From an uncultured Acidobacteriota bacterium (GTDB lineage: Bacteria > Acidobacteriota > Thermoanaerobaculia > UBA5066 > DATFVB01), in assembly GCA_963813155.1 (NCBI GenBank), contig CAWEYG010000005.1, positions 192,001 to 256,000 of the forward strand: a stretch of 64,000 bases of DNA, written 5' to 3'. This document shows, piece after piece, positions 8,128-13,540 of the stretch. Position 1 is the first letter of the stretch. Every line of letters starts with the position of its first letter. The position numbers were made by a program, and so were the translations under genes. Under the pieces are notes generated by a model, which did no database searches, was not told where the DNA came from, and saw nothing but the letters and a program-made list of their open reading frames with translations.

Positions 8128-8970
8128 TCAGGCGGCGTCTTCTCCCGCGAACTCGATTCGAACGTCCCGAACGAGGCCCGCCCGGGCCGCGCGCCCGAGG
8201 AAGGTCTCGATCGCGAGCCGGCCCCGTTCGCCGTAGCCGCGCGTCCAGTCGTTGACGTACATCGCAACGAAGCGATCCGCCTTTTCGCGGTCGAGGTCGC
8301 GGGCGAACTGCATGGCATAGTCGAGCGCGTCCTTCCGGTGGTCCAGCGCGTACTCGATCGAATCCCCGAGCGCGCCCGACACTCTTCGAATCGTGTCCGC
8401 TCCAAGGTCCTTCCGGATGACGTTTCCCCCGAGCGGCAGCGGTAGTCCGGTCTCCTGCTTCCACCAGGCCCCGAGGTCGACGACCCGAAACAGTCCTTCC
8501 GTCTCGTAAGTCAACTGGCCCTCGTGGATGAGCACGCCCGCGTCCACCTCCTGGGACTGCACGGCCGCAAGGATCGCGTCGAAGGGGAGGGTCGTCGTGG
8601 CGGTCCCGGGCCTCCAGAGCTGGAGCGCGAGGGCGGCGGAGGTCTTCGCCCCGGGGATCGCGACGCGGATTCCCTCCAGGTCGTGCTTCGAGAGAGGGCG
8701 CGAGGAAACGACGACCGGGCCGTAGCCGTCTCCGAACGAGGCGCCGTGCGGGAGCAGCGCGTAGTGCTCCGCGACGCCGGGATAGGCGTGGAACGAAATG
8801 GCGGAGACGTCGAGCTCGCGGTTTTCCGTCCGGCGGTTGAGCGTCTCGATGTCCGACAGCTGGTGGACGAACTCGATTCCGCGGTCGTCGATCTTTTTTT
8901 CGGCGAGCGCGTAGAACATGAATGCGTCGTCGGAATCCGGGGAATGAGCGACCGAGATCGTCTTTCTCAC
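8128..8970 (-). CDS. mqnD: 1,4-dihydroxy-6-naphthoate synthase (futalosine menaquinone pathway)
   Basis: HSPDSDDAFMFYAL, LIHEGQLTY, LPLPLG and MYVN motifs. Confidence 0.85.
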   Translation of the reverse strand: MRKTISVAHSPDSDDAFMFYALAEKKIDDRGIEFVHQLSDIETLNRRTENRELDVSAISFHAYPGVAEHYALLPHGASFGDGYGPVVVSSRPLSKHDLEGIRVAIPGAKTSAALALQLWRPGTATTTLPFDAILAAVQSQEVDAGVLIHEGQLTYETEGLFRVVDLGAWWKQETGLPLPLGGNVIRKDLGADTIRRVSGALGDSIEYALDHRKDALDYAMQFARDLDREKADRFVAMYVNDWTRGYGERGRLAIETFLGRAARAGLVRDVRIEFAGEDAA

Positions 8971-8984
8971 AGGGACACCCCGCC

Positions 8985-9043
8985 AAAAAAAAGTTTGAAA
9001 ATCAAGAAATATTTCTTGCGTCTCGTCGAAAAACACTTAAAAT
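8985..9043 (+). promoter_or_regulatory. Putative sigma70-type promoter with AT-rich UP-like element
   Basis: TTGCGT (9016-9021), 16 bp, TAAAAT (9038-9043); A/T tracts upstream in an otherwise very GC-rich window. Confidence 0.6.
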
Positions 9044-9208
9044 GAAATCGCCGAAGGGAATCAAGCCCTCCGGCGATTTAGGAGCGAATGTTCCTACAAA
9101 CTAACGGTAGTGACAGTCCGCAGGTGTTACGCCCCTTCCCAATCAGGGGGGTCAACATAGCACCGGCCCAACGGTCTGTCAATCGACTACCGGGAGGGAG
9201 GTGACGAA

Positions 9209-9271
9209 ATGGCCACCAAAAAGAAAGCTGCCAAGAAGAAGACCGCGAAGAAATCCACCAAGAAGAAGTAA
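9209..9271 (+). CDS. 20-aa lysine-rich micropeptide MATKKKAAKKKTAKKSTKKK
   Basis: Perfect SD GGAGGTGA (9197-9204), ATG 9209, TAA 9269-9271, followed by an intrinsic terminator. Confidence 0.75.
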   Translation: MATKKKAAKKKTAKKSTKKK

Positions 9272-9293
9272 CTCAACTCTGTCTAGGGTTTGA

Positions 9294-9320
9294 CGGGGCC
9301 TTCGGGCCCCGCTTTTTTTT
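9294..9320 (+). terminator. Rho-independent terminator
   Basis: CGGGGCC-TTCG-GGCCCCG stem-loop followed by C and T8. Confidence 0.9.
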
Positions 9321-9359: not shown

Positions 9360-9379
9360 CTATATCTGAGATGATATAG
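9360..9379. promoter_or_regulatory. Putative operator of the second PadR
   Basis: CTATATC-N6-GATATAG palindrome just upstream of the start codon. Confidence 0.6.
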
Positions 9380-9385
9380 TTGGCC

Positions 9386-9883
9386 GTGTCGCTCGAACAC
9401 GTTCTCCTCGCCCTCCTCTCCGATCAACCCGCGTCCGGCTACGAGCTCAAGAAGCGAATCGAGAGCGAGCTCGACCCGCTGTGGAGAGCGGAGGTCTCCC
9501 AGATCTATCCCTCGCTGGACAGGCTGCGTCGGGCGGGATTTGTGGCGATGAAGGTCGTCGGGCCCGGGCGGGGCCCGCGGAGCAACCGCCACCGGATCAC
9601 CCCCCGCGGACGCCGCGAGCTGGAGCGCTGGTGGAAGGAGCCTCTCCGGCCTCCGGATCTCCGGGACGAGTCCTTGCTGCGCGTTCTCGCGTCGGAGGCG
9701 GGCGGCAGCCGGGCGTTTGCCGATTCTCTTCGGGTCTACGACCGGGCGCTGTCGGACGAGATGGCGAGGCTTCGGAAGAAGACCGCCGCGACCGTGATCG
9801 CCGAGGCGGTCCGGCAGGCCGCGCTGTCCCGGCTGGAGGCGGCGAGGCGCTGGGCGCGCGCCCGGTACCCTACTTCTTCTTGA
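9386..9883 (+). CDS. PadR-family regulator (AphA-like)
   Basis: [28 protein letters not shown]; alternative TTG start at 9380. Confidence 0.88.
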
Positions 9884-10454
9884 GCTCGAGCAGGACGAGC
9901 TTCGCGATCGCCTTGAGCGTCTCGAAGACTCCGATTCCCTGGGGAGCGACGGCCTCGAAAGTCGGCTCTCCCTTGACGTTCAGGTGCTGGTACATCTCGT
10001 CGGCCGGCATGGCCGTCGGCAAGTCGCGCTTGTTGAACTGGAGGACGTAGGGGATCGTCGCGAGGTCGTACCCCTGCTCCTTGAGGTTCTTGTCCAGGTT
10101 CCGGAGCGACTCGACGTTGGCCTCCGCGCGCGCCCGCTGGGAATCCGAGACGAAGACCACTCCGTCCACCCCTTTGAGGATGAGCTTGCGCGAAGCGTCG
10201 TAAAAGACCTGCCCCGGCACGGTGTAGAGGTGGAAACGCGTGCGGAACCCCCGCACGGTCCCCAGGTCCAGGGGAAGAAAGTCGAAAAAGAGCGTCCGGT
10301 CGGTCTCGGTCGCGAGGGAGATCAATTTGCCTTTGGAGTTCGAATTCGTCCGGTCGTAGACGTACTGGAGATTCGTCGTCTTTCCGCCGAGGCCCGGCCC
10401 GTAGAAAACGATCTTGCAGTTGATCTCGCGGGCGGCGTAGTTAATGAACGTCAT
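9870..10454 (-). CDS. mglA: MglA small Ras-like GTPase
   Basis: [48 protein letters not shown]. Confidence 0.96.
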
Positions 10455-10477
10455 GGGCGTGTCGCGGCGGTCGGAGG

Positions 10478-10975
10478 CTACTCGGAAAACAGATTGTCGA
10501 TGTCTTCGTCCGTGATTTCCGCGAACGGGGATTCGAATCCCCCGACGCTGCTCTTCTCGACCTCGACCTTCTTGAGGAGATCCGCAAAGACCTTTTCGAG
10601 CTCCAGGGAGGCTTTTCGGACCCGAAGACGAACGAGTCCCAGCGACGAACGATCGTCGAAGATGACCACGAGGATCACGCGTTGCCCGACAATCGAGATG
10701 TGGATGTTGTCCTTTTCCCCCTCGTGGAACAGGATCGAGAATTCCTTTTCTCCGATGAGGCGCGCGAGGCCGTCGGTCGCGGCGACGTTTCCGGCCGTCA
10801 GCGACGCAAGGGACGTGGTATCGACGGACTCCAGATCCCCGTTCGCGGCGATCTGCTGGCCGTTCTTATCCACAAGGAAGACAATTTTCGCGTTCGCTTC
10901 GACCCGAAGGCGCGAAATGATCTCCTTGATCAGCTGGAATTCCTCATCGTACATGATGAGGTCGGGAGAGGCCAT
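10478..10975 (-). CDS. mglB: MglB roadblock/LC7 GTPase-activating protein
   Basis: [29 protein letters not shown]; adjacent to mglA. Confidence 0.95.
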
Positions 10976-11022: not shown

Positions 11023-11619
11023 CTAGATTTCCCGCCGGTTCAACAGCGAACGCGCCATGGTGACCTCGTCGGCATACTCCAGGTCGCCTCCCACCGGGAG
11101 GCCGAAGGCGATCCGCGTGACGGCGACGTTCTTCGGCTTGAGCAGCCGGGCCAGGTAAAGCGCCGTGGCTTCTCCTTCCACGTTCGGGTCGGTCGCGACC
11201 ACGACTTCCCGGACCCCGCCGTCGAGGCGGGGGAGCAGGCTGGAAATCTCGATCTCCTCGGGTCCGACGCCCTTCAGCGGGGAGAGCGCCCCCCACAGCA
11301 CGTGGTAGCGGCCGCGAAACTCCCTCGTTCGCTCCACGACGGAGACGTCCGCGGGGTCTTCCACGACGCACAGGATCGACGGGTCGCGCGCCGGGTCGGA
11401 ACAGATCTCGCAGGGGTCTTCTTCGGTGAGCATGTTGCACGTGCCGCATCGGCGCACGGCTTCCCTCGCGGAAAGGATCGCCGCGGCGAGCGCTTCCGAT
11501 TCGGCCGCGGATCCGCGCAGAAGGTGGTAGGCGATTCGGGCCGCGCCCTTCGCCCCGATGCCCGGCAGCCGCTCGAAGGCCGCCGACAGTTTCTCGAAGG
11601 ATTTCGGAAGAACCGACAT
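11023..11619 (-). CDS. recR: Recombination mediator RecR
   Basis: LPGIGAKGA, C4 zinc finger, Toprim EGEATA, GGDLEYADEVT. Confidence 0.96.
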   Translation of the reverse strand: MSVLPKSFEKLSAAFERLPGIGAKGAARIAYHLLRGSAAESEALAAAILSAREAVRRCGTCNMLTEEDPCEICSDPARDPSILCVVEDPADVSVVERTREFRGRYHVLWGALSPLKGVGPEEIEISSLLPRLDGGVREVVVATDPNVEGEATALYLARLLKPKNVAVTRIAFGLPVGGDLEYADEVTMARSLLNRREI

Positions 11620-11628
11620 TCGGTGGCC

Positions 11629-11922
11629 CTAGAAACCGGGGACCATGCCCCCCAGCATCCGAGAGGTCCGGGCCTGCACTTCCTCGTCGACCTTCCTGCC
11701 GGCCTCTCGCGCCGCCACGACAATGAGGTCCTGGAGCATTTCGAGATCCGACGGATCGACGAGAGTCTTTTCGATCCGGCAGGACAGGATCTCCTTCGTG
11801 CCGGACATCGTGATCGAGACGGCGCCCCCCCCGGCGGTTCCTTCGACGGCGACAGCCGCGAGCTCGGTCTGGACCTTGTCCTGCATGGCCTGCGCCTGCT
11901 TCATCATCTGCCGGATGTTCAT
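11629..11922 (-). CDS. ybaB: YbaB/EbfC nucleoid-associated protein
   Basis: MMKQAQAMQ, GTAGGGAV, DLEMLQDL; located between dnaX and recR. Confidence 0.95.
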   Translation of the reverse strand: MNIRQMMKQAQAMQDKVQTELAAVAVEGTAGGGAVSITMSGTKEILSCRIEKTLVDPSDLEMLQDLIVVAAREAGRKVDEEVQARTSRMLGGMVPGF

Positions 11923-13540
11923 TTCTTCTCCTTGATGTCGACGACTTCTCCCCGGAAAAGGGCCATCGCCTTCTGGACCATCGGGTCCTCCTGGGCGCGG
12001 CTGGACGCCCGCTCGCGGGAGAGAACCTGGGGCGAGACGCTGCGGGCGGCTTCGGTCAGGTTGCCGTCCGCCGGAGGTCCGCTGACGAGGCGGATCGCCA
12101 GGTCGCGGCCATAGGCCTCGCGAGCCGCTTCCGAGAGAAGCTTCGCGGCCTCGGGCCGGGAGAGCGCGTCCTTCGCCGTGGCCTTGTCGATCGGGAATTC
12201 GAGGACGAGCTCGCCGTCCTTCTCTTCGATCCGGTTCGCGAGCGACGCGTATGTCCCGATGAGCATCCGACGGGTCTCGACAATCTTCAGAAACCTTCGA
12301 GCGGGGTCTTCGGCGGACGGGGCGCGGGGCGGCGGTTCCGCTTCGGGGGCCGGAACGAGCGAAACGAAACGGGGCTCTCCCCGAAGAGAAGCGGGCGCTC
12401 TGCCGCCGCCTCCCGCCGGAGCGGCGAGGAAGAGGAAGAGGAAGACGATGCCGAGATCATGTCCTCGATCGCCCGAAGCCGCGGAAGCTCCGCCATTTTC
12501 AGCAGGGCCATTTCCCAGACGATCCAGGGGTCGGCCGCGCGCGGGAACTCCCTCTCGGTCTCGAGCTCGAGGGCGACGGCGCGAAGCAGCGTCTCGTACG
12601 GCGCGAGCCCGGCAAGCTTGGCAAGCCGATCGTCTTTCGACGGAGGATTGGCCGAAGCCATCAGCACCTCGCGGAGAAACGACAGGAACTCGCGCGATCC
12701 GTGCCGGGGGTCGAGGCCCTCTTCCCGGGCGCGGGACAGGATTCCGACGAGGGCGGCGCGGTCTCCCGCGACGACGGCTCCGAAGAGCGCCTCGAGAGTC
12801 GACCGGTCGACGAACGCGAAAATCTCCGCGCAGCGCTGTTCGTCGATTTTTCCTTCGGAGAGCGTCGCCGCCTGGTCGAGAAGCGACAGGGCGTCGCGAA
12901 GCGATCCGTCCGAGGCCCGGGAGATCGCCGCCAGGGCGCCGTCGGTGGCGGTGAGCGATTCCTTCTGCGCGACTTCGCGAAGGCGTTCCTCGATTTCCGG
13001 CTCCGTGAGCCGGCGAAAGGAGAACCGCTGGCAGCGAGAGATGATCGTCGCGGGGATCTTGTGCAGCTCCGTGGAGGCGAGGATGAAGATCGCGTGGGGA
13101 GGAGGCTCCTCGATCGTTTTCAGCAGCGCGTTGAACGCCGCCTTCGACAGCATGTGGACTTCGTCGAGAATCAGGATCCGGTACCGGTCGCGCTGCGGCG
13201 CGTAGCGCAGGATTTCGATCAGCTCGCGGGCGTCCTCGACGCTGTTGTTGGATGCGGCGTCGAGCTCGATCGTGTCGAGAGACTCGCCGCGCGCGGCGAT
13301 CTCGACACAGGAGGCGCACTTGCCGCACGGCGTGACCGTCGGCCCCTTCTCGCAGTTGAGGCTCGCGGCCAGCAGCCGGGCCGTCGTTGTCTTGCCGACT
13401 CCGCGGGGACCCGTGAAAAGGTACGCGTGGTTGACCCGGCCCGACTCGAGGGCGTGCGAAAGCGTGCGCGAAACGGCGTCCTGTCCGACGAGCGCGTCGA
13501 AGGTCTGGGGGCGCCATTTTCGGGGAAGGGCAAGTTGCAT
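11919..13540 (-). CDS. dnaX: DNA polymerase III subunit gamma/tau, split by a frameshift near 12370
   Basis: RKWRPQTF, GPRGVGKTT, DEVHMLS, SRC in 12287-13540; the C-terminal domain continues in another frame to 11919. Confidence 0.92.

Follow-up and report, generated by a model that had tools for sequence, protein, structure and literature searches.

The 20-amino-acid, lysine-rich ORF at 9209-9271 of the window (the whole stretch of DNA analysed, 64,000 nucleotides, from an uncultured Acidobacteriota bacterium with a 3.8 Mb genome of 66% GC) can be taken with high confidence as a real gene under purifying selection, and the module to which it belongs is, as judged from pattern searches, a single-copy component of the core genome across one Thermoanaerobaculia order of uncultured Acidobacteriota. 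Comparison of the homologous loci indicates that the ORF is selected and that both predicted promoters, both predicted terminators and a fold on the minus strand are conserved; from these we infer antisense expression, the direction of control, translation of the peptide, its ligand and the trigger. Our overall reading, to which we give a probability of about 0.45, is that the peptide would condense the nucleoid, or another polyanion, and would be kept under cis-antisense repression, an arrangement comparable in purpose to that of the HctA/IhtA pair of Chlamydia.

The peptide gene, its distribution and its neighbours

The features discussed below are listed here with their positions in the window and their strand.

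9016..9043, + strand: predicted sigma-70 promoter of the peptide mRNA (TTGCGT-16-TAAAAT), with a start near 9049
9088..9204, + strand: possible mok/ldrX-like leader ORF of 38 codons, its TGA inside the Shine-Dalgarno (SD) sequence; doubtful
9105..9192, + strand: long hairpin of the leader (fold A), in which the left arm 9105-9116 pairs with 9176-9180 and 9186-9192
9197-9204, + strand: SD sequence GGAGGTGA of the peptide gene, invariant in 27 of 27 aligned loci
9209-9271, + strand: gene of the 20-aa Lys/Ala/Thr peptide, ATG at 9209, product MATKKKAAKKKTAKKSTKKK
9294-9320, + strand: intrinsic terminator of the peptide mRNA, a 7-bp GC stem with a cUUCGg loop (9294-9311) and a T run after it
9154..9182, - strand: predicted sigma-70 promoter of the antisense RNA (TTGACA-17-TATGTT, extended TG)
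9147->9040, - strand: predicted cis-antisense RNA of ~105 nt, complementary to the leader in its 5' part
9048..9076, - strand: predicted antisense terminator, a hairpin of about -22 kcal/mol plus a minus-side U tract
8128..8970, - strand: divergent neighbour, a menaquinone gene of the MqnA/MqnD family (PF02621)
9380..9883, + strand: downstream neighbour, the PadR-family regulator gene padR (family match)

A perfect SD, a lysine-rich ORF and a cUUCGg terminator had been recognised in the preliminary description and all three are present where it had put them, as is the AT-rich, promoter-like region that it had reported upstream: the segment 8985-9050 has 27% GC, against 66% for the window, and the sigma-70-like box is predicted at 9016-9043. 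The limits then given to the unit, 9197..9320, do hold the SD, the ORF and the terminator, but they leave out this promoter, the leader of ~160 nt and the opposite-strand gene which lies inside the leader. An equivalent TTG...TAnnAT box was found in 93 of 104 homologous cassettes (the set left after dropping duplicates and loci with <270 nt upstream; genome G008, locus L011, is counted in the tallies and does not enter alignments A4 and A5, and none of the claims depends on it alone). The leader measures 155-162 nt in families f1 and f3 and 193-222 nt in family f2. Family f3 (L008-L024) also displays a second promoter-like box on the + strand, ~250 nt before the ATG (TTGACT/A-17-GAGAAT or CACAAT), which in some genera lies inside a TTGACTT...AAGTCAA inverted repeat.

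With 11 lysines among its 20 residues, the peptide has a net charge of about +11, and its lysine fraction of 0.55 is the highest among the 85,568 ORFs of 10-100 aa, with any start codon, in the whole genome. Throughout the 104 cassettes the length ranges from 18 to 28 aa and the lysine count from 10 to 13, the latter being exactly 11 in 94 of them; the other residues after the methionine are A, T, G, S and P, plus three V and one R, no hydrophobic segment was found, and 92% of the lysine codons are AAG (1,064 AAG versus 87 AAA). As to residue order, conservation is limited to composition. Variant codons are mostly synonymous, with a coding-selection ratio of 0.13 for 33 distinct 19-aa ORFs and of 0.16 for 10 distinct 20-aa ORFs, and the first six codons show eight synonymous changes versus none of the other kind. 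This bias, added to the conservation among relatives, supports the earlier proposal of a stand-alone gene for a polycation. Since the lysine count is fixed while length and spacer residues vary, selection would act on charge and not on a fold; constant charge together with free order and length points to a charge-driven binding of polyanions. Pfam and NCBIfam gave no match for the peptide or for look-alikes of 28-148 aa, and neither did the Hc1/Hc2 and NCBI H1-like profiles, short length and low complexity being limiting in both cases. Exact look-up of six proteins, including this peptide, found none of them among ~15 billion called proteins.

Lack of conservation was one of the two outcomes which, according to the preliminary description, would speak against its proposal; the ORF is conserved. 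When 40 relatives were searched at the DNA level, 30 loci came back: 28 with an SD and a lysine-rich ORF, and two unrelated low-complexity matches. The leader motif is present in 136 of the 151 genomes of the order (84 of the 89 good ones), once per genome in all but two of the positive ones, versus no match for a reversed control. Searching for this motif followed by the SD, with one genome per species, gave at least 119 matches: 87 precede a lysine-rich ORF and two end after four matching codons, 88 of these 89 among the matches listed coming from records labelled Acidobacteriota, Thermoanaerobaculia or Holophagales; the remaining 30 of the matches listed have no lysine-rich ORF and all belong to records labelled outside Acidobacteriota. 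Outside the order, a strict ORF pattern matched none of 189 genomes of the class and a covariance model of the f1 and f3 leaders none of 114 genomes, yet this model recovers only 2 of 16 f2 genomes and is therefore too insensitive to show absence there. None of 32 pattern matches in viral contigs carries the peptide ORF (they were other genes), and the module was not found in a plasmid search. A loose ORF pattern run across the phylum (132 of 301 genomes) was rejected, its matches being mostly ordinary proteins starting with MAEKK or MAKKK.

The MqnA/MqnD-family gene, which we take to be mqnD from its HSPDxDD start motif, stands divergently before the unit in 79 of the 80 loci that reach far enough; downstream, a padR-like motif (a loose one) was found in 78 of 78 loci. 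The palindrome CTATAT-N8-ATATAG at 9360-9379, directly before padR and detected by a looser pattern in 74 of 102 cassettes, is likely to be a PadR operator. Farther along the window, on the - strand (9870-10975 and 11023-13540), lie an MglB-like roadblock and MglA-like small GTPase pair, then dnaX-ybaB-recR, all ordinary core genes. Another lysine-rich stretch before a terminator (G000:C1:715036-715170, +) is the end of a longer frame.

A looser pattern matched 31 of 351 genomes across the phylum, and the 30 loci fetched comprise five from this order, 20 other stand-alone lysine-rich ORFs and five lysine-rich starts of other proteins. The 20 stand-alone ORFs outside the order encode 12-148 aa with KKAT/KKAA repeats, mostly behind short leaders, and all lack an antisense promoter at the equivalent place; the peptide class would thus not always depend on antisense control. 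Of 19 loci outside the order, 14 have their next long frame on the opposite strand (automatic pick). Look-alikes are found between ppk1 and ppx (two loci), beside a CHAD gene (two) and before pstB (one), i.e. in 5 of the 20, four of which come from one family. These five (L181-L185, from other Acidobacteriota) are lysine-rich ORFs of 19-20 aa with their own promoter and terminator; in L186, L188, L189, L272 and L273 a lysine-rich ORF, varying from 14 to 148 aa between genomes, stands behind a sigma-54 response regulator gene, and shorter ones of 12-14 aa with an SD occur in other families (L262, L278-L281). Two proteins of 72-85 aa (L198:751-1005 and L177:1300-1515, both on the - strand) carry a lysine-rich tail at the N-terminus, joined to what is probably a histone-fold core, and are candidate tailed bacterial histones; the 85-aa protein of L198 matches PF00808 weakly, under the cut-off (E 0.0019), and used as a single query it found no such partner in the present genome.

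Near-identical contigs were found in RNA libraries of soil, peat and sediment, from three runs of three studies; they cover 9057-9287, 9057-9268 and 9060-9250 with 0, 1 and 0 differences. They extend over leader and ORF, starting shortly after the predicted start site, for which this is a weak hint. The fourth of the four runs examined out of 24 listed (X1) gave no contig over the peptide unit, and mqnD and padR had no near-identical contig cover in the RNA runs, where contigs give no level and cannot rank expression. Being strandless, level-free and possibly due to DNA carry-over, the contigs are a hint of transcription.

The leader and its predicted antisense RNA

The simplest reading of the minus-strand signals is a conserved cis-antisense RNA gene, a prediction in which we have good confidence. 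The antisense promoter is present in 28 of the 28 first loci and in all 29 scored loci (30 fetched) found by the ORF pattern alone. Its consensus has 32 matches in the genome, most of which precede long ORFs, versus two in the reversed sequence, and the unpaired bases of the promoter are invariant while the spacer varies. From there to the terminator hairpin the distance is ~105 nt, and 119-149 nt in f2; a tract with at least five U within nine nucleotides accompanies the hairpin on its minus side in 79 of the 104 cassettes (all 26 of f2, 53 of the 78 of f1 and f3), versus 3 of 104 on the plus side. The antisense RNA of the window folds at a z-score of -5.2. When the terminator is left out, the body folds better as minus than as plus strand in 69 of 73 f1 and f3 sequences (z -2.4 versus -0.6), and in f2 it is only weakly better than shuffles (z -0.36). 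A consensus fold, built on 60 of the 73 f1 and f3 sequences, has 96% of its cells paired and nine pairs changed on both sides; this number was reached in 2 of 500 shuffles, a control which overstates the covariation because the sequences tested are related to each other and are also those from which the fold was built. The body stem contains 175 G-U cells versus 4 A-C cells, an asymmetry which indicates that the fold belongs to the minus strand. Rfam gave no match near the gathering score for the leader or for the antisense RNA; the idea of a 6S RNA was dropped for want of an Rfam match and because the 6S RNA of the genome lies on another contig.

Two folds are possible for the leader. The long hairpin of fold A is 96% paired over 70 f1 and f3 sequences, its two-sided changes coming mostly from six f1 sequences, and f2 possesses an equivalent, invariant leader stem. 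In fold B the right arm can pair over the SD instead, CAYCUC facing GAGGUG in 64 of the 70 f1 and f3 sequences. For this second fold no excess of compensatory change was observed in f1 and f3 (388 of 500 shuffles reach it) and only four of the six SD pairs form in the family of the present genome; in f2, a 9-bp helix with compensatory changes lies over the spacer between SD and start (covariation 0.106 versus 0.054). According to the folding model, blocking the antisense-covered part of the leader raises the cost of opening the ribosome-binding site (RBS) from 10.6 to 14.1 kcal/mol in 67 loci and from 12.1 to 16.5 kcal/mol in 26 loci, an increase of over 1 kcal/mol being computed for 79 of the 93 loci and a decrease for none; removal of this part thus tends to bury the SD. 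Compared with shuffled arms, the native right arm gives the more strongly closed SD in 93 of 96 loci, though it outdoes 23 or more of the 25 shuffled versions in only 53 of the 96. Within the antisense body, exposure in f1 and f3 is higher for the segment complementary to the left arm (0.58) than for the remainder (0.29), a difference not seen in f2. In the full-length leader, opening the SD already costs 10-12 kcal/mol and the SD is paired in several minimum-energy folds of f3, so the ON state would not be a clean one.

The in-frame ATG of the leader ORF is found in 72 of 78 f1 and f3 cassettes and in none of 26 in f2. That this ORF could encode a selected protein was rejected (ratio of 3.2, no protein-level selection), and the antisense fold pairs only one base of the complement of its start codon. 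It might possibly serve as a mok-like coupler in f1 and f3.

We propose that in the nascent leader the left arm would pair with the right arm and leave the SD more open, whereas binding of the antisense RNA to the left arm and the apical loop would free the right arm to fold over the SD; the leader/antisense duplex may in addition be cut by RNase III. That the antisense RNA represses the peptide seems to us probable. A fall in antisense RNA under stress, starvation or dormancy would then let the peptide be made in bulk, and it would coat or condense DNA, possibly other polyanions as well. Most likely the antisense RNA shuts off a peptide that would do harm if made at the wrong time. The simple, strong expression unit of the preliminary description survives as far as promoter, SD and terminator are concerned; the long structured leader, the fold over the SD and the overlapping antisense gene make an output that is probably repressed or conditional.

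Candidate functions and known systems

Binding to the nucleoid or to other polyanions is the best reading of the peptide that we can offer. Its Lys/Ala-rich, highly basic composition is shared with Hc1, Hc2 and the H1-like families. The term 'protamine-like', used earlier, fits it poorly: protamines are arginine-rich, and arginine is nearly absent here (1 R versus 1,151 K in the 104 cassettes). Nucleoid condensation is preferred by analogy with HctA (Hc1), an H1-like protein rich in lysine and repressed in translation by the small RNA IhtA (PMC3469542; PMC4355289); HctA is reported to be lethal and to condense the nucleoid in E. coli, and IhtA to relieve this (PMC3469542). IhtA comes from a gene of its own and acts in trans, and HctA is a protein of full size for which Pfam has a model, whereas the RNA predicted here lies in cis inside the leader, off the SD and the start, and the product has 20 residues. 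Hc2, with its variable lysine-rich pentamers (PMC2848022), which the KKAT/KKAA repeats of the look-alikes recall, and the C-terminus of Pseudomonas AlgP (PMC9239181) resemble the peptide in composition and repeat style, the look-alikes too being of varying length, but the peptide is ten times smaller, is devoid of a folded domain and has no profile match. As to control, a further parallel is the Inc RNA and the rep leader peptide/repZ unit of ColIb-P9, where a long-range pairing holds the initiation site open, the antisense RNA competes against it and the leader ORF stops at the RBS structure (PMC4705826). The present locus differs in being chromosomal, in having a strong SD and AUG rather than a weak SD and GUG, and in that no pseudoknot was found.

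Type I toxin-antitoxin loci are commonly patchy, repeated or mobile, whereas the present module occurs in 136 of 151 genomes of its order with one match in all but two, keeps a fixed synteny as a single-copy core gene (84 of 89 good genomes) and was absent from the viral and plasmid searches. These data, and the occurrence of similar peptides without an antisense promoter in other lineages, make it unlikely that the polycation is a growth-arresting toxin, acting in persistence or abortive infection, with the antisense RNA as its antitoxin. The layout does recall hok/mok/Sok and ldrD/ldrX/RdlD, which also have a long 5' UTR, an internal antisense away from the RBS, a possible leader ORF and a tiny protein, and overproduction of LdrD or Fst condenses the nucleoid (PMC4147584); but the product here is a hydrophilic polycation, not a membrane toxin, and it is devoid of the hydrophobic segment which the same account gives as near-universal in type I toxins (PMC4147584). 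About as unlikely is a polycation of polyphosphate granules, one that would size, space or tether them in starvation and would be similar to the C-terminal part of AlgP; granule spacing requires the KPAA-repeat tail of AlgP (PMC9239181). The look-alikes beside ppk1/ppx, CHAD and pstB in other Acidobacteriota keep polyphosphate binding among the rivals, although they amount to the 5 loci of 20 (four of one family) mentioned above, their homology to this ORF is a matter of low-complexity likeness only, and the gene is flanked by mqnD and padR in the present order.

Small basic ribosomal proteins such as bS22, bTHX and eL41 offer another model, that of a lineage-specific ribosomal or ribosome-hibernation peptide, with which the size, the charge, the strong SD, the preference for AAG, the near-universal single copy and the presence in RNA libraries would all agree. 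We hold it improbable, as residue order is unconserved beyond composition and look-alikes reach 148 aa, unlike a protein which fills a pocket; arginine is almost missing, the gene is not within a ribosomal operon, and neither a profile match to such proteins nor a fixed sequence was found in the peptide. The association with ribosomes suggested in the preliminary description gets no support from the genomic context. It is still less probable that the minus-strand unit has a job of its own, as mqnD leader or promoter or as trans-acting sRNA, and overlaps the leader without controlling it. The antisense RNA does have its own fold, and in the family of this genome mqnD, which starts ~75 nt past the terminator hairpin, is without its own -10 box (0 of 7), so that transcription from the antisense promoter may read through into it as well. 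But the antisense terminator is strong, the unit is kept in f3 and f2, families in which mqnD mostly does possess a -10 box (49 of 50 and 16 of 20 loci, respectively), and with a full overlap pairing to the mRNA would be hard to avoid if both RNAs are made. The least probable of the alternatives is a leader peptide, inert in itself, that would sense lysine or translation and attenuate transcription into padR. Eleven Lys codons do stand directly before a terminator with a same-strand gene behind; yet padR is not a lysine gene and is preceded by a palindrome of its own, the next long frame outside the order is mostly on the other strand (14 of 19 loci, as above), and the non-Lys residues are confined to A, T, G, S and P.

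Significance of the locus

The literature searched (mostly open-access, main texts) contained no description of the peptide or of the antisense RNA. As predicted from the comparison of genomes, the locus joins a layout like that of type I toxin-antitoxin loci to a polycation like an H1 tail, in a core genome. Gene callers and tryptic proteomics would both miss such a peptide, and yet the leader motif is near-universal in a soil-dwelling order; the locus also offers a new, predicted family of structured antisense RNA. With 21 codons and a 105-nt RNA, it lends itself to a cheap and direct test in E. coli of whether free lysine micropeptides compact DNA or polyphosphate in dormancy. In its boldest form, which we consider rather unlikely to hold as a whole, the proposal is that of a core chromosomal 'dormancy switch', in which a free histone-tail-like peptide of fixed charge (+11) would reversibly collapse the nucleoid while a cis-antisense RNA, from afar, would flip the leader between a fold with an open SD and one that buries it, and which would be one of several independently invented RNA locks on widespread, unannotated lysine micropeptides.
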